64,000 bases of DNA from Yuukianura sp. NJ FZ-2021 (Eukaryota): contig CM102285.1 in the NCBI GenBank assembly GCA_046563655.1, forward strand, positions 248,001-312,000. Direction: 5' to 3'. The position numbers and the translations under genes were made by a program. The notes beneath the pieces were generated by a model. The model searched no databases. It was not told the origin of the DNA and was given only the letters and a program-made list of their open reading frames with translations. Positions 9,339 through 38,000 of the stretch are shown here, piece by piece (the stretch's first letter is position 1; each line of letters opens with the position of its first letter).

Positions 9339-9999
9339 GATCTGTCTTTGTCAGCTTCCAGCGATTTCTGTTAGATTCCAGCGACGTCTGTCAGTTTTCC
9401 ACGTCCTGTGCAAGTGCAGTTCGGCTGGATTCTGGAAGAATAGAAAACACAAAGTGTCAAGGAAGAGGAACGGTTAACGTCACGGAAACGTAAGTACCAA
9501 CATGGATCAGAATCGATTAGTCTCTTACTTTTCTCCTCAGCCGATTTTAGCTTGTTTTAACTGATTTCAACGTTTGTTTTAACTCAGCTTTTTGTTGTAA
9601 CTTACCTTGATGACACGCTGGCTGACCTGTTCTTACCGTTGTTACCTGCTGTGATAGTGATGAAGTGAGTTAGCACTTAATCACGTCATGGTTAATTACG
9701 TTAAAACGTTATGCTATGCTTTAACTTAACTAATGTCTACGCTAAAAGTTAAAACTACCTGCTTACAATGAAAGATGGATGTGGGAGAAAAAAAGAGAGA
9801 AATTCGTTGTTTTCCTCTTTGTATCGGTAGACGTATGGATTAACTGCCATCCTTGTACCCTCTATGCGTAGCCACTTCGGCCTTCTTGTGTGGCCAGAAT
9901 AAACGGCTAACCTAGTGGCAACATTTGTTGCTACTGTAATTTAAGGCTCGCGAATACCCTGGAAACTGGGGGTCAAAATGCGGCTGTAACTCATGAAAT

Positions 10000-10277
10000 G
10001 AAAAATGGTCTGGATCAGCGTAGGAAGGTCGTACAATGACCCACAATATATCAAACTTTAGGAAAAGGCTTGATCTAGTATCATGCCCGAGGAAATTACA
10101 AAATTTTAGTTCTATCTATGTAAAAATAGAGGTGGAATGTTTGGGTCAATTTTTTTCACAGTTAGAAGTAAAATTTTGTAATTTCCTCGGTTATGATACT
10201 AGATCAAGTCTTTTCCTAAAGTTTGATATATTGTGGGTCATTGTACGACCTTCCTACGCTGATCCAGACCATTTTTT
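10000..10277. mobile_element. Long inverted repeat (foldback MITE core)
   Basis: Arms of about 108 bp (10000-10108 and 10169-10277) are near-perfect reverse complements, with a ~60-bp spacer. Confidence 0.8.
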
Positions 10278-10546
10278 AATTTCAATGTCGCATTCTCAAA
10301 AAAGTTGTTGACAAAACCCAAACTACGGCAACCGAACTTTGAGTCAGTATTTTGTTTGTTTGAAAGTAATACTTTTTTTGATCATATTTGCACTGATCTT
10401 TTTCACCACCCATGAGGGCGTTTCTTTTTGTCGATGTCTGCAGCTTTACTAACTAAACAAGCTCGGTTATCGTGGTTACTAAATTTAACGATTGACGCAT
10501 AACACACGTCCTTAAACAAAAGTCAACTAAAGTCGCAACAAAAATG

Positions 10547-10750
10547 TGAAATTCCCGCGTTCTAAACCATGACAATGTAAACAAACGTAGGGTTGAAAGA
10601 AGCTGTAACCACCACCATTGTACTCGCATATTGTAGCCACCTACTGCAGCCGTAAAGTGGCTACACTGTGCCGCTACAATGGTGGTGGTTAAACCTTATT
10701 TCAACCCTATGTTTGTTTACATGGTCATAGTTTAGATCGCGGGAATTTCA
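10547..10750. mobile_element. Palindromic MITE (~200 bp)
   Basis: TGAAATTCCCGCGTTCTAAACCATGAC...ACCACCACCATTGTA is mirrored by TACAATGGTGGTGGT...GTCATAGTTTAGATCGCGGGAATTTCA. Confidence 0.75.
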
Positions 10751-10950
10751 AATTGGCGTCACTCCACATCTAAAATCATTTCCCAATTTCATTTCTGTTT
10801 TTTACAATTTATTTTAATTGTATTGATTGTAAATTAAGTTAATTAGTACGAAATAATGTAGGTAATAATTAACTGAATTAATTAATTAATAATGGACTAA
10901 TTTAATTATTAATTAACTAAATTTGTAATTAAGTGAGTTACAGCTCCTCG

Positions 10951-15402: not shown

Positions 15403-18400
15403 TCAGTCTCCTGGTTGCATTGATCCTTTCTTCTTGCGCGCAGAATCTTGGCGGAGGTACTTGAGCCTCTCTTTCTCCTGCGAATTCTCGGCTGGTTCGC
15501 AGTCGTAGGAAGCCAGGCAGAGAGCTGTGCACAAAAATTCAAAATTTCTAATTTTTACGCATGTGCAAAAAATTTGAAAAAGAAAACTGACCAGTTTCGC
15601 CAAGAATTGGCGCCGTTTGTAACGTATTTAAAACGTTTTGAACTTTCGGGAACGGACAACTGACTTGCTGCCAAGCTCCGACTTCCGTTACTTGCTTCGC
15701 CAACTGCCAAAACTTTTCAAAGTTGATGTGACCCGTAGGAAGTCTAAAAACAAAAATTTTGAAAATTTTAAACTTCAAAATCCCAGAATTTCAAAATTTT
15801 GAAAATTTTAAACTTACTTGGAAGTACACCCTTCATTGAGAAAATACAAGTCCTTGACCAACAGCGAAAAAAACGGAATGACAATTTTCTCACGCTCGTC
15901 CGTCGCTCCGACCGCTCGCCAAACAGCAGCCTTTAAATTCAGAAAAACCCACAAAATCCCAAATCATTCTCTAATTTTTTTTTCTTCAAAATTTCGAAAC
16001 AGTTTTTCAAAAACCAACTTTGAGTGTAGCTCTATATGAGGCGAAATTTGAGGTAGGATCCATCTGATGTTCTAGAACGGACAGTTGCGTTCGATTAATC
16101 TTGGCCCAAGTTTTCTTGAGTCTGGCGACTGGCGACATGTTCAGCCCAGCGACCAGCGCCATCAGAGAATTGAAATTCCCAATGTTAAAACACTCCCGCG
16201 CAGTCTCAATCCAGTACTCGGTCACACGCATGCGCAGCTTCTTTTTCTCTACTTTGCATATTTCAGTGGCGACATAAAACGAGAGACGGTTGAACCACAT
16301 CACATACGACTCCAAGTTTCGCGTTTTCTTGCTCTCTTTCCACTTCCCCTCAGGATCTTTAGTAAACGCCTAAAAAACATTTCCAAATTTCAAACTTTTC
16401 AAAATTCAAAATTTCAAACTTTTCAAAATTTTGAAACCTGAACAAACTCCTCTGGCCCAATGTGTGACAGTCGTTCTAGTTCGATGTGCGTCAACTGCTG
16501 GGCCAAAACAGTCGGACTCGTGCAAATTACAGCGATTGACACCTTATAAAAAAACCAACAATGTCAATTTTAAATTTCAATTTTTTAAAAAATTTTCAAT
16601 TTTTCAAAATTTCAATTTTTTTAAACACTTTGTATCAAACTCACACTTGAAATTGGCTGTGAAAGGGGCGAGTCTACGGAAATCCGGTGTAGAAAATCTT
16701 CGTATCTTTCTAACGCAGTGAGTTTCGCCAGTAAATGACTCAGCAGAGCGGAAACGTCTTTACGGATCTGAAAATTTCAAAAGCACCTTTTTAGAAAAAG
16801 TTTCAAAATTTCAATTTTTTTCTAAAATTTTTTTGTTGAACGTACTGCTGGATGGAGAGTGACACACTTGTGTGTGATTGTCCTGACATGGCCCATCATC
16901 CTCTCATCCCTGAAGTCATAGGGGAATAGTTGTGACCACTCTGCCAGGAGACTCACGACTCTAGAAATGATGGCCGTGTCTTTGGCCGTCACGAAGTTGT
17001 TGGAGTGATGGGTCGTGGCCAGGGCTAGTCGAAACACTCTGCCTAAAAGTTCATGAGGTCGAATGTACAGGCGAGAGCAGAGCACAAAAGCAAACACAAA
17101 GGAGTGCTGCGGGTAATGCGTCTGCGTGGGAACCAAATGCTGAATCAGTCCATCCAAACTTCCCGCAACCAAAACTCCACCAGTATACACAAGGGCCTAT
17201 AATCGACCAATCAGAATCAAGAATTAGGTTTTCCCGGCAAAAAGTGTCAAAATTCTAAGGATTTGGAGTTTGAATTTTGGACACCTTACATGATTGTAGG
17301 CCAAGTCTTGATGCTGCGCGAGATGGCCCAAGAATTGTGGATTGCTGCGCAGATTCGTGAGTGGTGATGGACTGCCATTGGCTGCAGACACTTTCCGGTG
17401 TTGGTACAAAGGAGAGTCCGGCGAGGGACAAGGCGTTCCGAACAGACTCGGCTAAAAATAACAAAACAAAAGCTACACAATTTAACAAAAAAAAATCAGC
17501 ATTTCTTCAATTCTGTTCCAAACTCAAAATTCTAAAACAAAGTAACGGTGCTCTTTTTTAAAAAAATGCTCTTCTTTAAAAACCGAATGCAAAAGAAAAA
17601 ACAGAAAATTTATTTCGTTGTTCAGAATGTATTGCGTGGTTCAAAGAAAAGTTGCAACAGAAACATGATATTGATTTCGTCTATCTTTGAGGTCACTGCC
17701 CTCTGTCCGTTTTTTTCTAAAGTCAATGACCCGTGCCTCTCCATTTGAAAACTTGAAGTCATTGTCCTCCGCCTCAGTTGCTTTCTTATGAAGGCCATTG
17801 ACCTTCGCCTCTCCATTTGGAAACTTGAGGTCATTGACCTTGGCCTCTCCATTTGGAAACTTGAGGTCATTGACCTTGGCCTCTCCATTTGAAAACTTGA
17901 GGAGGTCACTGTCCTCTGTCCCAGTTACTTTTTTACAGAGGTCATTGACCTGCATCTTCCAAATCGGAAACTTGAGGTCATTGACCTTGGCCTCCCCATT
18001 TGAAAACTTGAGGTCATTGACCTTTGCCGTTCGAATTGGAAACTTGAGGTCATTGACCTGCGCTTGCTCAAGCTTTTCCAGTGTCAAAAGGTTACTGACC
18101 CTGGGCGACGGTGATGAGGAGTACGACGACGAGCTGGCCGACGACATTGACGCCGACATTGAGTTCGATTCATGTCGTTCGTGCTGTCTCGGTCGCAGTT
18201 CGTGATGTCGTGAGAAATAATTCTGCCCAGTATTTGTACTTTTCGCTGGAATCGTCATTCGCTCCAATTGGCCTCCCAGTCCACCAATCCCATCGTTCTG
18301 AGATACTTGCAGCGATTCCACCAGTTTCAGCGATTCTGGAGGAATCAGCGATCCAGTATTCTCAGATGTCCACACTTCCGTTGTCTTGCTCTCGTATTCA

Positions 18401-18777
18401 TTGTCTTCCTCCACTTCTTTTAGTCTCTCATCTACTAAAATCCCATGTTTGTCTCTCAGTGTGAGCAGTTCAGTCGTTTTTGTAGTTGATTTTGTATTGA
18501 CAGTAGTTTCCAGCTCAACCGGCGCTTTTAAAATTCCCGCCCTCATGAGAATGTCATTCAACAGTTCAGATGGCGGAACTTGTCCAGCGATCAGCGCTTT
18601 CTTGATCCTCTCTCCCTCTTCTCCGTGCAGCGTCACTGGATACCCGTTGACCAATAAGATTTCTTCTGACTGGAAATTTGTACTCTTCTCACAGTCAATG
18701 ACTCTCGTTCCTTTGCCAGCCAAAGACTCCACTTTACGCTGAATCTCAAGGTCATCCATCGCTTCCAAAGGCTCCAT
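15403..18777 (-). CDS. RASGEF1: Ras guanine-nucleotide exchange factor, RasGEF1 family (REM + CDC25 domains)
   Basis: REM: ALVYTGGVLVAGSLDGLIQHLVP...FPYDFRDERMM. CDC25: YVMWFNRLSFYVATEIC...ECFNIGNFNSLMALVAGLNMSPVARLKKTW...MDPTSNFASYR and RLPTGHINFEKFWQLAKQV. C-terminus LASYDCEPAENSQEKERLK. The long first coding exon ~18091-18777 splices in phase 0 to 17290-17451. Start is tentative. Confidence 0.9.
17715..18060. repeat. 36-bp minisatellite containing the IR1 palindrome AGGTCATTGACCT
   Basis: Perfect copies at 17828, 17864, 17939, 17975, 18011 and 18047, with degenerate ones near 17720, 17756 and 17791. Confidence 0.9.
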
Positions 18778-18959
18778 CGCTTGATCGCTCCTAAAAATAA
18801 CACAAAAACATAAGTCAACATCAATCAAGCGATTAAGCATTCATGATAACACGAACATAACAAAAGAGTTGAATCCACTTTCAAGTACAAGCGGGAAAAA
18901 ACTTCTTTCGATTGATTCAAAAATCAATTTTAGTCTGACAGAAGTTTTTTTTTCCCAAA

Positions 18960-29038: not shown

Positions 29039-32000
29039 TCACTGCGGTGGAGTTCGTGCTAGGTTTATGCAGAGTCCAGTTTCTAGTCTCCTCGAAGGCG
29101 ACAGAATGAAGTGACCCAGGTCACTCGAGTACTGTTTCCGCTCTTCTCTCGTCAGTTCCCGCCCTACTTCCGTTGAATCTCTAACAAAAATAATTTACAT
29201 ATTCACATATTTATGTTTATATATTTATAGTTATATTTATATTTATATATTTATAGCTATATTTATATTTTTATGTACATACTTGATGATAAGTGCACAT
29301 TGGTCTGTATGGACATTGAGGATTCGTCCATTCCCGAATTTTTTCCAGGTGACTTTTTCCTGGAGAACGACTGGACTGAGGTCATATGGGTAGTCGACGT
29401 CCAGTTCTGGAACAAAGTAGTCCAGCAATCCACTATCGATTCCAGTTCGAGCTGAAATCTAAAAAAAAAGTTTTTGAAAAACGATTTTCAAGTTTTGAAT
29501 TTCCAACTTTTCAAACAAGGTTTCAATTTTCAAGTTTTCAGTTTTCAACTTAATTGTAACAATTTTTTCTCAATTAAGCTAAACTTAGATCTATGCTGGC
29601 GGTAACACAGGTTTGACTTTGGAAGTACAGTTTGAAAATAGCTTTCAAAATTTTGAAAAGTGAAAAAATTTTACTTCGTCTCTGATGACAAGTTCTATTT
29701 TTTCAGTGTAGTCATGCGTCACTTTGATTTCAAATGGATCCGCCAGAATTAGGCTGCTGGGGTGCCATTGTCTAATCAAAACATGAAATTCCTTCTCTCC
29801 AAGTGTATCCGGTGCTGTGATTGGCTGGAAACATCAACAATAACATAATATAATAAATATAATATAATAACATATAATAATACATAATGAACCAATAAAC
29901 AAAGTCTTTGCATAAAAGTGGTGCACAAGTCTAACCTGCACAAAAAGTTCTCCGTTTCCCGCCGTGAGGAAAATGTCTCTCAGTTTAGTCGTGTCGCGGA
30001 TAATTCTGCCGGGAAAACTTCCTTTTTTCTTCCGAATTCGAAGACTGGAATAATTTAAAAAAAAAACTAAATTTTTTGAAAAACTTTTTTAAAAAGTGTT
30101 TACAAATTTTTGGAAACGTACTGTGGTGTCTTGGCTTGTTCTTCTGCAGACTGAACTGACTGTACTGCTTTGAGACAAGCCGCTTTGACATCTGATCCGT
30201 CCATTCCCGAATGCAAAATCACTTCACTCAAGTAAGGCGGAGTCTGAAAACGGAAATTCAAAAAACAAATGTTAAATTTTTTAGAAAAGTTTTTTTTTTC
30301 GATTTTTGTTTCAAAATTTTACTTCTTTTGGACGACTAAAATCCAGCAAGTAGAGCGCCACTCGGAATTCGGTTGGTCCAAGTCTTCTTCCTATTTTTGT
30401 TTTCATGGACTCAAAACTCTCCAAATCTTTGAGCATGCAGTTCCTCTGCGCATGCGTGTACTCAATTTCAGTTTGACCTTGACCTCCCGTGACCCCGAAA
30501 ATGTTAAACTCACTTTCACTTTGATTCGTTTCTTGACTCAATCGAAAACTCAGTTCGCTCAAGGTCAATCTCGGACTACAACGGATCTTCAATCCTGTTC
30601 AAACAACATCTTCAATACAATTTTCAAAAAAGAGGAAAATACACTTTTGTGAATTTGTTTGCCTAATTCTGACTTTTTCCAAAATGCCTCCTGTAGAAAG
30701 TTAGAAGGTGTGATGGTGTTTTAAAAAAACAATATTTTGAAAAATTTCACTTTTTCATGAATAAGGAAAATACATTTTTGGAAATTTGTTAGTCTATTCC
30801 TGACTTTTTCCAAAATTCCTCCTGCAGAAAAGTAGAAAGTGTGGTGGTGTTTTAGAAAAACTATATTTTTGAATTTTTTAAATTTCCATCAAAAAGGAAA
30901 ATGCACTTTAGTGAATTTGTTAGCCTACAGATAACTAATCAAATAATCTGTATAATCATGACTTTTTCAAAAAGAAGGAATGGAAACGGAAGGAAATTTA
31001 GAAAACCGTTTAGAACTATGGAATTTTAGAATTTCAGAAATTTTAGATTCAAAGATCTCAGTTTTGGAATTCTTACGTTCAAAATCTCCCGGGAGTTTCT
31101 CACGACCTTGAACGGAAAAATAGTTTTTCGAAATCTCCGTCACGTGACCATTTTGTATTGGCGGTTCGAGCGGGTCAAATTCAAATTGCGTTTCTGACTG
31201 GTAGCGAGGACGAGTAGAGAGGTCATTGACCCCGTGACCTGATGCCGAAAGGTCATTGACCATGTGACCTGATGCCGAAAGGTCATTGACCCCGTGACCT
31301 GATGCCGAAAGGTCATTGACCCCGTGACCTTGACACTCGATGAAGAAGCAGTAACTTCCGTAGTACTGGGAACACCATTTCAGAAAATCGTCAACTTCAA
31401 ATTCCTCCACATTTTGAGCCATGAGTTCCACCAAACGAGCCCCACTTTGAAATTGAGCCACCACAAAATCAGCATCGGTCAACAAAATACTGCCAGCGTC
31501 ACTCTCAGGCCGACGAGCCAGTACCAAATTTTGAACAGGAATTTCAAAATTTTTGGAAATTTTGAGCTTAAAGTCTTCCAGAGTTACTCCAGCACCGGCA
31601 CACGGAAAATGGATTTCGGCAGTTTTCAAAATTTCGTCGTTTTTCCAGTTGACCAAATCAACTTTTAAGACGCCGTCTGTAAGGTCAAGGTCAAAGGTCA
31701 AAAATAAACAAGGTAGGGCAATGCTCAAGGGTTGAGCATAGGTCTTCTGGAGGGAGTTGACAATTGATACGACTTAGATCGACCGGCCACCCTCAAAACT
31801 GTACAAGAATTGAGAAACCGTTTTCATGTAGTTGCTGCACCATGTGGCTCAAAATTTTCAGTGCGGATGTAAGGTCCTATTTTGTGCATGAGTTGCACCA
31901 AAATTGGATTGGCAAATCTATCATTTAATTGAACCAAAATCATGTTCCAGATTTTGAGCCCCAAAATATTTGCACCGAATTGATGTTCGTAATTCATTAA

Positions 32001-35000
32001 ACAACATGCACATAATGTATTGTCGATGTTGTCATGGCAATGCACTATTAGCGAAAAGAGCGTAAACCAAATGGCATCAAAATAATGATATAGAAATTGA
32101 GATTTGTGCAGGATGCACAAATTTGAACGCGGAAGGAGAATGGGTCGGATATCCCTTCTTATAAATCGAAGTCGGTTCATGAAAATGCACAGTGTGTGAA
32201 ATTAAGCGCATAAGTTATTGAACCGAAAATTGCTTGCTTATAATCAAAATTATAAAAATTTCTTGCAAATGTTTGTGGAATTGCCACGTGAATTCCACTA
32301 GGTTTTTCAGTTCAAAACTCTCGCAGTTTTTAGATTCAAAAATCCCACAATTTCAGGCCTCTTAGCCCCTCCCTCTACTACGCAGTTAGTTTAGGGCTTT
32401 TGTTCTGTTCAACTCTGTTAGCATAAGTCAGTCTTAGCACGTTGTCACACACAGTACCATGCCTAAGTACTCGACCTACACTCTCATTAACAATTAATTG
32501 TTCATCATCACTTAACTTTCATTCATTAAACAAAGGGTTAAAAGCCCAGATTTTCCTGAACTTTTCAGAGTCTGCTTTTTGCCCAGTTTTTCTTTAGTTC
32601 AGTTGGAAAGTTACTGAACATAATTTTTCAGGAAATCTAAAATTAACTTTAATCAATCAGTGACTCTCTATCAGTGACATGGCTTCTACTTCATCCTCCG
32701 ACGTAGTGAGCTTCAGTTCTGCAACAGCTGGACTCGGTCATGTTAGGAAGACGATCGTTCGCCTCCAGACGTCCTTAGACTCCGTAACATGGAAACCGAC
32801 CACTGTCCCTGAAGTCACCGTTAAGGAGACTCGACTAAGTGAAATCAAAACTGAGTTCAATTACTGGAAACGTCATCTCATCTGTGCCAGTACATCCTCC
32901 CAATCATTGGACGACATAGACGATACACTTATCGAGTGTGAAGATCTACTAGAACAGGTACAATTCACACTCTATGCCGTTCGAGATTCAATTTGTAAAC
33001 ATGCCGTGGACCAACCCGGTTCTTCAAGAATTCAACATCACTCTAACTTTGATTCTGAGTTTAAGTTAGAAAAGACTAAACCACCGACTTTCAACGGCGA
33101 TTACACCGAATGGCAGAACTTCTCGGATCTGTTCCAGGCTGCTGTCATCGATAATCCCAGAATTTCCGGTGCTCAAAAGCTCGTCTATCTCAAGAATTCA
33201 CTGACTGGTGAAGCTGCGTCCATCGCTTCTTCATTCCCACTCAACAATCTCAGTTTCGCTGAAGCATGGGAATTGGTTGAGAAACGTTTCAACAAGAAAC
33301 GAGAAATCATCTTTTCTCATTTAACTAAACTTTTCTCTCTTCAGTCTGTTCCAGACACATCCAAGGGGATTCTCAAGTTGGTCGACACCATCAACCAATG
33401 TCTCCGTTCCCTCAAGATCCTCAACGTCAATGTGACGGATTGGGATATCTTCATCGTCTACTGGGCCCATCTCAAACTTGATCCAGAGACGAGAAGACAG
33501 TGGTTACTGACCACTAACGACGAACTTCCTACTCTTCCTCCGTTCATGGAGTTTTTGGAGAAAAGAGCCAACGCCCTCACTCCAACACCATCATCACCGT
33601 CATCAAAGCGGAAATCAAGCCCTTCATCATCCACTGCTCATCACACCACTACAGGGCAAACGAAAACCAAATCAGGCTGTCCACAATGTGATGACCAGAC
33701 CCACCGGATCTACAAATGTCCGGATTTTCTCAAATTGAGTCCCCATGACCGAACTACTTTCGCCCACAAGAAGAAAATTTGTATCAATTGTTTGCGCTCA
33801 AACCATCAAGTTCGGGACTGCAAAAGCGAAGGGGTGTGTACCAAGTGCTCAAAACGTCACAACACCCTTCTCCACTTTGACGCTCACGTCCGCCGTCGCA
33901 GTTCGAGCTCATCATCTGAGTCATCTTCAGACTCAAATTCAACAACAAGTTCAGCGTCAAGGTCACCACCCTCTGCCTTTCAGTCAACCTCTTCGTCTGA
34001 CGAACATGTCCAGTCCCATCACTCGTCCTCTACGGCACCCACTACCAAAGTGGTTCTGATGGCTACTGTCGTCGCAAGAGTCGTTGACCAGAACGGTGAA
34101 CGTCAACCTTGTCGTGTCTTCCTGGACCCCGGCTCCGAATCCAACTTCGTCTCAGAAGCTTTCGTCGACCGATTCAACTTGAGGCGACAGAAGTCATGCA
34201 TCAGTGTGACTGGAATCGGAGGTTCATCTGGAGGCTCCACTCGTGGTGCGGTAAATTTCAAATTGCACTCACGTTATGACAATTTTATCTTTCCAGTTAA
34301 GGCTCTCATTCTGCCTCGCCTCACTGGACAACTTCCACGCTCCGAATGTCAGGGGTCATTTCCTCACTTGGATGGGCTCTCTCTGGCTGACCCTGACTTC
34401 AACATTCCGTCATCCATTGACATTTTACTCGGTGCAGAAGCTACTGCTCAAGTACTCCTGCCCGGAATCAGAACTGGACTGCCAGGGACCCCACTCGCCC
34501 AAGACTCTCGTTTTGGCTGGTTTATCACTGGGACTTCTCCGTTAAGCCCAGATCACACCTCTCCTTTCAGCGTCACCTCGTGTCACGTCACTTGTGACCC
34601 AAACGACAAAAGTTTGGAAGCATCTCTGCAATGCTACGGGGACCTGGAACACTCTTCACCACAACCACTCAAGGCAGATGTACTACCCCCTCAACTCTAC
34701 GCTGGAAAAGTCGTGACCACTGCAGTCTCACTTTGCCCAGGGTCAACATCCGCCTCAATGCAATTCAGAGCGATGCCGATCAACTTTTGTGCCCAGAAGC
34801 AGCAGGTCAAGGGAAACGTCCGCTTTCTCTCCCCCTTCTTGGACAACAACAACAACAACAACAACACTCGAGTAGGCAGCAGTCGTCAGATGTCGGCATT
34901 CAACAACAGAAGCCGTCATCCCGTCCCCTCTCGAAATCTCAAGTCTCCTCAAATGGAACCTCAACCAAACAAACTCTACCGACGTCCCTTCACTCGACTT

Positions 35001-38000
35001 GCTCCTCTGCCAATCGATGAAGACGTCACTGCAGCATTCTCCAGCATCAACCAGATGTAGATTTTCAATTCTAATTTCGAGTAAAGTTAGATTCAACTTT
35101 AAATTTAGATTTCTATAATTTAAATTTAATTTAAATTTATTCTCTCTCTCTTCTAAGCATTTAAGTTTCTCACGCCTGCGCGTTTTCGCAAACAACCCCG
35201 TTTCATTTCCGGTTAAGCTTCAAGTTTTCCTTGGTGGATTTCCTAAATCCACCAACGTCGGGGAATGTTTGTGGAATTGCCACGTGAATTCCACTAGGTT
35301 TTTCAGTTCAAAACTCTCGCAGTTTTTAGATTCAAAAATCCCACAATTTCAGGCCTCTTAGCCCCTCCCTCTACTACGCAGTTAGTTTAGGGCTTTTGTT
35401 CTGTTCAACTCTGTTAGCATAAGTCAGTCTTAGCACGTTGTCACACACAGTACCATGCCTAAGTACTCGACCTACACTCTCATTAACAATTAATTGTTCA
35501 TCATCACTTAACTTTCATTCATTAAACAAAGGGTTAAAAGCCCAGATTTTCCTGAACTTTTCAGAGTCTGCTTTTTGCCCAGTTTTTCTTTAGTTCAGTT
35601 GGAAAGTTACTGAACAGCAAAGGCAAATTTGAACCCTGCCAATCACTGTTCGCATGTTACGAATTTAAGCCGGATTTTCTACCCTCTAATTAGTCTTAAG
35701 TTAACAACGTACCTAAACATAATATCAGAAAATGAGAAGATCAAAACTTCGTTGTTTAAATATATTTTGAGTGCAATGCAGACCTAACACAGAAATTTTG
35801 AGGACTTAAGAAACTGCAACGCGAAGCAGCCGCATACTTTGACGTTGTTAACTTAACACTTTGAGTGCAATGTAGAGGTAGAGAAAATATTTGAGCCATA
35901 CATCACCCCCCGACTGCGATAGGACTAATGTTTCAGCGCAAAAGATACTAAAAAAGCGAACGGACAGACAGACAGACAGACAGACAAAGTCGTATCAATA
36001 GTCTTCTTCAGCATGTCGTAGACATGCGTCTCCAGAAGACTAAAAACAGTAAAAATCGTGTTTGCAAGAAAGAAACCGTCGCGGTGTTGATCGTTTTTGA
36101 AAAATTTGTTTTTTGAAAAACTTTTTTGAAAATCCAACCTGCAGTGCTGTATGGTTCGAATGACCTCTCTGGTGACCTCACTTCGAGCAAAAGCGTTTCG
36201 AGATCGGTTTCGCCGTACCGACGAACCACAACTCCGAACGGTTCGTCCTCTCTGCCTTCCCAACTTTCTTCTGAAATCAGCGTCTGCAAGTTGAAACGCA
36301 CGAGACGAACAGTTTCCGGATCAACTTCTACGTCTGGATAGAAAACCTAAAAAAATCCAATTAAAAAAAATATTTCAGAAAAATAAAATTTTGAAAATTT
36401 TTATTTATTTTTTTGAACCTTGTAAGCTTCTTGTGCCGTTTTATGTAAAGATTCAATTTTTTCGAAGGCTGTATCCACCGTGTCTACTTCCCAACCATCC
36501 GATTTTCTCTTGCAGAGGCGCACGCGTCTAACGCGTTTTTCATACGTTTCAGAGTCGTGCACTTTTCGATCGTTTGGTTCCATTGAAGTCCAAAGTTCCT
36601 GTGAAATGTTTTACGAAAATCCAAGTGTTTTACGAAAATCCAAGTGTTTAGGGTTTTATGAAAACCCAAGCGTTAACAGTGTTTTATGAGAAGTGTCTTA
36701 TGGAAAACCCAAAAGTGTTAAGTGTTTTATGAAAACTTAAAACAGCAAAAGAGTTATAAGTGTTTCGTGAAAATCCAAAAGTGTTTTGCGAAAACCCAAG
36801 TATTACGACTGTGTTATGGAATACCCAAAAGTGTTTTATGAAAACCCAAAAGTGTTTTATGAAAACTCAAAGTGTTTTTTGTTACTTTGATGTGATCCGG
36901 AAGGTCATCCCAGGTCATGGGGAGCGTGTTGAGGTTTTTGTCTCTTCTTCGATAGATGAGCATGTAGGCCTCTCCTTTATCCCGTTCAAATTCTCCCACT
37001 CCCGGGTGACCTCCGTAAGTTTTCATCACTTCCTCTTCCGAACTCTAAAACCAAAAAAAAACGGAGGTGAAAATTTTTGAAAGTTTTCAAAATTTCGAAA
37101 CTTACTTTTCGAACAAAGGAGTCGTTGCATAAGTACCAAGCACATTTTTCAAGGTCATAGACATATGAGTAGTAGTGACCTCTATGTGATGACCCGCCTT
37201 CATGCACCCAAACTGCCAGCAGCTCATACGCATGTGCAGATTCCTCTTCTTCTGCTGTTTTTCCAATTTCAACCTCTTTCTAAAAAAAATGTGACAAAAA
37301 GTTGAAAATCAAAATTTTGAAAATTCTAAGATTTCCAAATCGAAAATTGCAAAAATTTTTACACTGTGGATTTTGGCTTGTGGTCGGCTGTGCACCGTTC
37401 GCCGCTGCGCAGACTCCAAGTGAGCGCCGATTTTTTCTGGATCGATCGCTGGAACTTTTTCGTCTTCGCTGCCTCCATTTTCGCTGCTCGGCATGAACGG
37501 ATCCATGTTCAGGATAAACGGAAACGATATCCTGAAATTCCAAATTTTTTCAAAATTTTGAAGTTTTCAAAATTTCATTTTCAAATGTAGTGTCTCACTT
37601 GTCATTGATTTTCCTTCGTGCTAAAACAGTAAGATCGAATTCCCAGCGTCGGAGTTGGAGCGACAGAAAATACGGTAATTTTTCAAAGGCTGTTCCCTTT
37701 TCAGCGTCAACCAACGCTGAACAGCGTTCGCAGCGATACTGATTGGGGTGAGTCAAGACTTCTACTTGCACAAAGTTCCGAAGTGCCTCTTCCTCAAATG
37801 AGTCACAAAAGAAAAATTTTATGAAAACTTTCAAAATTTCTAAAAATGACTAATTTAAAAAAAAAGTTTTCCACTTACAAGCGTCGGTTTTGTCAGTTTC
37901 TCCCCAAATGCTCTCACTGGTAAAGAAATTCCCATGGATAGTTCAATTTTTGAATTTCGCTGGTTACACTGCAGACACTTCACGTAATCGTTCATGAGCC

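Follow-up and report, generated by a model that had tools for sequence, protein, structure and literature searches.

We find that a Bel/Pao retrotransposon of Yuukianura sp. NJ FZ-2021 very probably belongs to a long-lived non-autonomous lineage that has retained its Gag-protease. The element lies in a 64,000-nucleotide stretch of contig CM102285.1 (positions 248,001 to 312,000), hereafter the window, and is one of four short copies without reverse transcriptase (RT), RNase H and integrase. Like its full-length relatives, it has no transfer RNA (tRNA) primer site. The bases at that position pair with a segment of its own long terminal repeat (LTR), in a helix that probably acts as primer for minus-strand synthesis. 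The preliminary description, made from the letters of the window, had proposed a long-lived parasitic lineage rather than a freshly broken copy, and the four copies, their shared deletions and the selection on gag-pro support this.

The window element is one of four short copies

The window element is a non-autonomous Bel/Pao derivative, not an autonomous member of the group. Its LTRs have TG...CA ends, it is flanked by a 5-bp target-site duplication (TSD), and a Gag with DUF1759 and Cys/His knuckles is followed by a protease, all as in Bel/Pao elements (Table 1). RT, RNase H and integrase, which Bel/Pao elements carry in order, are absent from it and present in relatives 81% identical to it. 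A Pfam scan of its open reading frame (ORF) gave no match to RVT_1, Peptidase_A17, integrase or DUF5641, as had been expected of a hidden Markov model search; the four intact full-length relatives scanned all carry RVT_1 (weak, below the cut-off), Peptidase_A17, integrase and DUF5641. The aspartyl protease match in the window ORF is weak and below the cut-off (E 6e-4). A structure model of amino acids (aa) 455-640, with a predicted local distance difference test score of 87, has Ddi1 and retroviral proteases as its best matches.

The pol relics follow the normal Pao order. The uninterrupted 793-aa frame was confirmed, and alignment to the full-length relatives placed the three relics named earlier and added a fourth (LKADVLPPQ...). 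The relics are 68-78% identical to those relatives. That all deletions keep the frame is true of the window copy, which reads through to the natural C-terminus, but the frame is lost at the last relic in each of the other three. Despite this, all four ORFs are open for 793-804 aa.

Table 1. Features of the Bel/Pao element and its insertion site (window coordinates).
Feature	Position	Strand	Remarks
5' TSD, GCAAA	32265..32269	.	target within host dispersed repeat
Bel/Pao element	32270..35616	+	3,347 bp
5' LTR, TG...CA	32270..32620	+	351 bp
ATTAAA, poly(A)-signal-like hexamer	32525..32530	+	putative function; same place in 3' LTR
Small hairpin between hexamer and pairing segment	32535..32547	+	
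LTR segment complementary to post-LTR bases, candidate self-primer	32548..32560	+	3 bp, 1-nt bulge, 9 bp
U5 terminal hairpin	32597..32619	+	kept with changed letters in A33, A34 and A35; predicted folds, read by eye
Primer-binding site (PBS) position	32621..32638	+	6-nt T-rich spacer, then 12 nt pairing with 32548-32560; no TGG tRNA site
Single ORF, Gag-protease and pol relic tail	32679..35060	+	793 aa, no stop
DUF1759 (Bel/Pao Gag, capsid region)	33090..33506	+	aa 138-276, Pfam E 1e-30
Three Cys/His zinc knuckles (nucleocapsid)	33678..33875	+	aa 334-399, ligands as in full-length relatives
Aspartic protease, motif LDPGS as in full-length relatives	34044..34598	+	aa 456-640, retropepsin fold
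End of protease-RT linker, then junction 1	34599..34667	+	~1.75 kb gone (all RT and RNase H), at short LKAD/LKAE repeat
Relic 1, start of RNaseH-integrase linker (LKADVLPPQ...)	34668..34766	+	~71% DNA identity to A33; then junction 2 (~87 nt gone)
Relic 2 (FLSPFLD...RHPV)	34769..34926	+	AAC repeat expanded
Junction 3 and relic 3 (polyprotein C-terminus)	34927..35060	+	~1.15 kb gone: integrase zinc finger, core, most of DUF5641
11-bp hairpin, then short polypurine tract	35231..35265	+	kept in A31-A35
3' LTR	35266..35616	+	identical to 5' LTR
3' TSD, GCAAA	35617..35621	.	

The insertion is well defined. As first described, the LTRs show no difference over 351 bp and GCAAA stands on both sides. 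The target (window 31700-32269 and 35617-35640) is a high-copy host repeat, and the unduplicated site has 72 matches with at most two mismatches (18 exact) in other copies of that repeat, against 1 for a reversed control. Because the unduplicated target is common in the host repeat, the duplication is real.

Three further short copies (L028, L029 and L030; 3,414-3,426 bp) occur in the same genome. Our search covered 98.7 Mb in 22 contigs; its counts refer to the matches listed and are lower bounds, with at least 27 matches to the element. The four copies lie on three contigs, have different TSDs (GCAAA in the window; GGCGG, GCCCT and TGTAG in L028, L029 and L030, respectively) and are 93-97.5% identical in gag-pro. 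All four share three deletions relative to the full-length element A33, of ~1.75 kb, ~87 nt and ~1.15 kb; 87 nt after 34778 are present in the other three and absent from the window copy. A search with the tail alone found, among the matches listed, only the four short copies and the C-terminal relic of full-length elements.

Five full-length relatives of ~6.4 kb share the LTR ends: A31, A32 and A33 (L031-L033), ~81% identical, A34 (72%) and A35 (65%). Their frame is open for 1,793-1,800 aa in four cases and stops at 1,598 in A32. We conclude that the four copies inserted separately and form a real non-autonomous family. The predicted copies with common junctions at different TSDs, and the predicted autonomous partner with similar LTR ends, were thus both found. 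The opposite outcome, a single copy with flanks nearly 100% identical to a full-length element, was not seen, and no full-length parent above ~82% identity is among the matches listed.

Identical LTRs are what a recent insertion would leave, and on that ground the element could be a freshly broken copy, or an assembly collapse, of an autonomous element. We regard this as highly improbable, given the same junctions in four copies at four TSDs, the distance to any full-length element listed and the divergence of the relics. Against a collapse, a variant at 34682 is seen in contigs of four sequencing runs (two samples) whose ends lie 37-70 letters from it, and those of two runs appear to reach at least 31 letters past junction 1. 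Such contigs cover 29-30 of the 30 bins of the stretch, and no listed piece spans it whole.

No other gag-pro-only family was found among the ten loci examined that match gag and have no RT match nearby: eight have no LTR pair, L099 and L101 show only long segmental repeats, and L093 is a single 5.3-kb deletion copy. The last (G000 C4:4360500-4369999) is a tRNA-primed Bel/Pao copy of 5,290 bp with LTRs 99.8% identical, TSD TATAC and a 1,184-aa open frame, and its internal deletions take most of RT relative to L050. A mirror image of the window element was also observed: L066 (G000 C3:7384063-7393563), a 4,623-bp copy of the L044 family without ~1.95 kb of gag (LTRs 99.7% identical, TSD CAAAT). 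L098 (G000 C4:15461500-15469500) has a 982-aa open frame with two DUF1759 matches and no LTR pair found, and is a possible domesticated tandem-gag gene. A solo LTR of A31/A32 type with TSD ATGAT lies at L036:5231-5596. At L184 (G000 C1:4524500-4534000), an inverted LTR whose last 162 nt are identical to the L042 LTR stands ~4 kb from the 3' LTR, and other repeats around it are likewise present as inverted copies.

Gag-pro is under purifying selection

The insertions are younger than the lineage. The LTR pairs of the four copies differ at 0, 0 (plus one gap), 7 and 4 (plus two gap columns) positions, that is, by 0-2%. They are thus near-identical, while gag-pro synonymous divergence (dS) is 0.13 among the copies; it is 0.70 to A31-A33.

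Across the four copies, gag-pro shows 103 synonymous versus 62 nonsynonymous changes (ratio of nonsynonymous to synonymous polymorphism, pN/pS, 0.19; p 2e-25), and the tail 12 versus 37 (pN/pS 0.99; contrast with gag-pro, p 3e-6). Selection on gag-pro relative to the relic tail had been predicted, with neutral gag-pro as the outcome that would speak against the proposal. Purifying selection was found, and none is detectable on the tail, which looks neutral. However, of the 100 singleton alleles in gag-pro, 61 have a counterpart in full-length relatives, being ancestral or imported. The raw ratio therefore overstates selection inside the short lineage, and the count was repeated on private alleles.

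Purifying selection on gag-pro survives this test, while the domain-level and contrast claims are weaker. Private alleles give 22 synonymous versus 17 nonsynonymous changes in gag-pro (pN/pS 0.25, p 2e-5), 18 versus 11 after removal of suspected exchange tracts, and 10 versus 5 in the protease (pN/pS 0.17, p 0.001). The capsid (3 versus 2, p 0.08) and knuckles (1 versus 2, p 0.51) are non-significant, as is the contrast between gag-pro and the tail (p 0.15), the tail giving 6 versus 12 (pN/pS 0.64, p 0.41). Fixed differences to the full-length elements are 25 synonymous versus 2 nonsynonymous in the capsid and 19.5 versus 7.5 in the protease. An open tail of 135 codons has a chance of ~0.16 per lineage under 12% random change, so its openness is weak evidence of selection. 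The shared singletons, the non-significant tests, this chance and a copy number of just four among the matches listed all weigh against a lineage kept for its own Gag-protease.

The short copies are mosaics, in which blocks of informative sites switch partners. Runs identical to A31 extend over 86 nt of the capsid region in the window copy and 95 nt in L029, while identity to every full-length element is just 75-90% in most 40-codon windows of the short copies. Such mosaics are known to arise by template switching when two RNAs are packaged together (PMC6894440). This indicates the A31/A32 family, which is likely the helper that swapped sequence with the short family. Gene conversion between genomic copies could also have produced the shared tracts, and this counts against the assignment.

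The same tracts and mosaic pattern, together with the shared singletons, are what would be expected of a passive parasite whose RNA is moved in trans, whose gag-pro is conserved through ancestry and repeated patching from full-length relatives, and whose own protein is unused. Moreover, movement does not require coding, since the genome also has a mobile, non-coding family of 2.2-2.3 kb that shares these ends. Nevertheless, we consider passive parasitism unlikely. Private alleles are still skewed towards synonymous change, even outside the tracts; 640 codons are intact in all four copies, while the tail has indels and approximately neutral change; and most 40-codon windows are too divergent from every full-length element.

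Purifying selection on gag-pro could also reflect a domesticated gag-protease host gene, in an Arc- or Bik-1-like use, and Bik-1 shows that young gag-only elements can serve a host (PMC12067270). Yet the family consists of four young insertions with no single fixed locus, with intact LTRs and priming signals, and the window copy sits in a host repeat. Domestication is thus very unlikely.

We favour a parasite that makes its own particles. The element RNA would be translated into Gag-protease, which would build and mature particles and favour the packaging of its own RNA (cis preference). RT and integrase would be supplied in trans, in mixed particles, by a full-length relative, most likely of the A31/A32 family. 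The tail would be a passenger, needing at most freedom from early stops, and minus-strand synthesis would be self-primed via the helix at the PBS position.

Among A31-A35, the N-terminus of gag (aa 1-125) is much more divergent (nonsynonymous divergence, dN, ~0.49; dN/dS ~1 among A31-A33) than the capsid (0.03). Its tree is unlike that of the rest, with domain swapping or diversifying selection as possible causes.

An LTR-leader helix occupies the PBS position

TGG is absent after the 5' LTR from all nine elements inspected (the four short copies and A31-A35). Window positions 32627-32638 pair with LTR positions 32548-32560, and the pairing is preserved, in different letters, in A31/A32, A33, A34 and A35. 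We extended the comparison to 50 more of at least 135 RT matches in the same genome, mostly picked for long open frames, and to the ten gag-only matches. An LTR pair was called in 44 of these 60 loci; the calls for L043, L058 and L056 were discarded, with L047 and L056 subsequently placed manually.

The tRNA site is missing from a single clade. In an RT-RNase H tree, the 14 elements with LVDN form one clade (FastTree support 0.99), and the relatives form one clade among Bel/Pao RTs (FastTree 0.99, ultrafast bootstrap 100) in trees that contain Bel/Pao RTs only. A tRNA-type site is absent in 13 of 13 LVDN elements with a readable leader and present in 34 of 34 such YVDD or YVDN elements. L042 and L056 do have TGG, followed by LTR-matching bases. 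Neither the window element nor its LVDN relatives have a PBS complementary to the 3' end of a host tRNA. Seven of the best 120 public homologues have LVDN, all within the LVDN clade. LVDN replaces YVDD across the clade without a tRNA site (L031-L035, L042-L047, L056, L066 and L067; L103-L114, L117 and L118), and YVDN marks a separate, tRNA-primed clade.

The helix is longer in this clade than in tRNA-primed controls. A perfect helix of 8-10 bp occurs in 12 of 12 elements from the same genome. A metagenome scan gave 19 loci, and in the six whose LTR end could be placed the helix measures 9, 9, 8, 8, 9 and 7 bp. It starts at +4 to +8 after the LTR, and 0-10 of 200 shuffles reach the observed length; in 34 of 35 controls the helix is 4-7 bp. 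Six of eight helix positions show at least two pair types across 14 families, besides an invariant terminal pair and a near-invariant one, in an alignment that was anchored on the helix and so has pairing by construction. In a cross matrix, an element's own LTR-leader pairing is best or tied in 11 of 12 rows, the exception being L047, whose segment lies outside the 140-nt window used. Between the window family and A31, the pairing energy is -13 for own partners and -6 to -8 for crossed ones. Duplex energy relative to dinucleotide shuffles is modest: 1-7 of 100 shuffles for the elements from the window family to A34, and 13-22 for A35, L042, L046 and L067. This energy test preceded the choice of the perfect-helix length test and of the cross matrix.

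Some observations argue against a helix specific to this clade. Among the tRNA-primed controls, L051 forms a 10-bp helix from +13 onwards; the 7-bp helix of L112 is reached by 23 of 200 shuffles; and L113, left unscored, is ambiguous between a long LTR with self-pairing and a short LTR with a TGG site.

The helix might instead be a regulatory fold, for example one that masks the 5' poly(A) site, with some other RNA as primer. It is short and A/U-rich (approximately -9 to -14 kcal/mol), and the host tRNAs available for comparison came down to the one present in the DNA examined. However, it lies exactly at the PBS position and is found only in elements that have lost the tRNA site. Its letters also change from one closely related family to the next, which would be incompatible with a fixed host RNA. 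We therefore find a purely regulatory role doubtful and prefer the helix as primer.

The helix also recurs, in new letters, in a non-coding family of this clade. Its members (L175-L177; G000 C3:6325500-6329500, C7:4214200-4218200 and C3:10670900-10674800) are 2.2-2.3 kb long, with related ends, 411-412-bp LTRs (95-100% identical), TSDs ATATT and GTGCG, and no polyprotein similarity. LTR-like matches to this family are also present in L178-L182.

Candidate RNA ends for priming

The helix ends at a regular distance from the poly(A)-signal-like hexamer. It ends 15-18 nt after A(A/T)TAAA in all five elements without an intervening hairpin, and 25-33 nt after it in all 13 elements that have the small hairpin. 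It ends in purine-A in 18 of 18 elements, and a run of 3-6 T adjoins the paired leader bases in all 18. Cleavage and polyadenylation are expected at such a spacing from the hexamer. This suggests priming by the RNA's own 3' end, and the leader T-run could pair with the first A's of the poly(A) tail. T-rich spacers also precede tRNA sites, which tells against this use of the T-run. On these sequence patterns, we give nearly an even chance to a 3' end that primes from the poly(A) site through a few A's paired to the T-run, and favour it over a Tf1-type cleavage.

In the Tf1-type alternative, the transcript would begin with the pairing segment or slightly upstream of it, and RNase H would free that segment from the 5' end for use as primer. 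The elements combine the absence of a tRNA PBS with a PBS that is complementary to an LTR segment and covaries with it. The geometry is that of Tf1, in which 11 nt pair at the PBS (PMC7175516), a U5 hairpin is present, and the segment is preceded by 7-9 nt in two stray LTR fragments of the short family, which begin at LTR nt 270-272. Against this, the helix ends at the expected cleavage and polyadenylation site and would leave little of the R region behind for strand transfer, and the stray fragments contain the pairing segment itself. Nor does the fragment pattern recur in nine loci of two other families. Tf1-type priming is thus rather unlikely here, and 3'-end priming remains our preferred route.

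The stray fragments (L039:2748-2826, from LTR nt 272, and L040:2637-2687, from nt 270) may be captured strong-stop DNA, although they are a weak hint. The L039 fragment opens with an 8-nt fold-back and runs precisely to the end of the LTR. Similar fragments were found in none of the nine loci examined in two other families. An A-run after the 3' LTR of L056 was considered as a fossil poly(A) tail and left unused, as L137 breaks there without a clear A tail.

Taken together, reverse transcription in a Bel/Pao clade might be primed by the polyadenylated 3' terminus of the element's RNA, consisting of R and a short stub of A's, in a manner unlike the tRNA or Tf1 routes. Each family would have a private key in its pairing letters, with rapid change between helper and parasites, and the window element would be a parasite that depends on others for RT and integrase alone, bringing its own capsid, protease and key. 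We offer this combined reading tentatively and consider it less likely than not.

Other features of the window

An Rfam scan of 32200-35700 gave no matches, and a search of viral contigs gave six pattern matches, none of them confirmed. Positions 1661-2217 hold a 157-nt inverted repeat (99%) of 15-16-nt tandem units, resembling a miniature inverted-repeat transposable element or a foldback element, and more inverted repeats lie at 9996-10281 and 10543-10754. Two minus-strand ORFs (17641-18840 and 30967-31422) encode repeated V-N-D-L units with 12-aa and 10-aa periods.

Relation to known systems

Gag-coding non-autonomous LTR elements are already known in animals, and the Bel/Pao gag and protease form is a variant of these. 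No Gag-protease non-autonomous Bel/Pao family was found in the literature searched, a scope that lies outside Repbase and GyDB. Likewise, no case of Bel/Pao self-priming was found in that literature, which excluded supplements and most subscription papers: PMC3118150 does not mention primer, PBS or tRNA, and the available parts of PMC3601003, PMC10886601 and PMC3286476 contain no such case. We describe a probable helper-parasite pair in an animal Bel/Pao lineage with the parasite's capsid and protease under selection. Such a pair makes it testable why parasites keep coding, through cis-preferential packaging, particle stoichiometry or helper interference. Elements of the LVDN clade would be overlooked or wrongly classified by LTR finders that rely on a tRNA PBS.

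According to the International Committee on Taxonomy of Viruses (ICTV), Belpaoviridae carry a complete pol and a PBS of 18 nt that binds host tRNA-Arg or tRNA-Gly, and Bel/Pao replication is poorly understood (PMC8742986). The window element shares the Gag with DUF1759, the protease, the domain order of the relics, the LTR and the polypurine tract, whereas both the tRNA PBS and a full pol are absent from it (PMC8742986).

The preliminary description had called the element an animal analogue of plant TR-GAG, and this label holds in part. Both are under 4 kb, with LTRs, a polypurine tract, a 5-bp TSD, several copies, one Gag ORF and no RT, RNase H or integrase (PMC4350172). However, TR-GAG is defined as Gag without an aspartic protease (PMC4350172), and the window element is therefore not a member; in its family the protease is present, folded (in the model) and selected. 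Furthermore, TR-GAG1 has a tRNA PBS and the window family has none, and TR-GAG elements are plant elements derived from Copia/Gypsy, while the window family derives from Bel/Pao, without a Copia/Gypsy Gag, and keeps pol relics.

Animal LTR elements with gag and no pol include Bhikhari Bik-1/Bik-2 of zebrafish (PMC12067270) and mammalian ERVL-MaLR (PMC11359688). Like the window family, these are recently or formerly mobile and need a partner. They differ in belonging to endogenous retrovirus lineages, with gag only and hundreds to many thousands of copies; the window family is Bel/Pao, with gag and protease, four copies and candidate helpers in the same genome. In mouse intracisternal A-particle (IAP) 1-delta-1, an internal deletion creates a Gag-Pol fusion that acts in cis on the RNA encoding it, a reported cis preference, and the element still depends on proteins in trans (PMC7411935). 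That element has one deletion, is close to its parent and also needs Gag in trans (PMC7411935), whereas the window family has three shared deletions, dS 0.7 from its likely helper and a complete Gag and protease.

Self-priming has been described for Tf1/sushi and Tcn1 (Ty3/gypsy) and for TAR/Houba/Osr-1 (copia) (PMC7175516, PMC6317226); in Tf1, RNase H releases the first 11 transcript nucleotides, which serve as primer (PMC7175516). The LVDN clade resembles Tf1, Tcn1 and TAR in having no tRNA PBS, a PBS position that pairs with RNA derived from its own LTR, and a U5 stem-loop. Those elements belong to other superfamilies: instead of the Ty3/gypsy chromovirus RT of the Tf1/sushi group, the relatives of the window element carry Pao-specific domains, and the pairing segment in the window ends at the predicted poly(A) site. 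If the reading is right, the LVDN clade, whose self-pairing co-varies, would represent one more origin of self-priming, and priming by the 3' end would be a mechanism different from that of Tf1.

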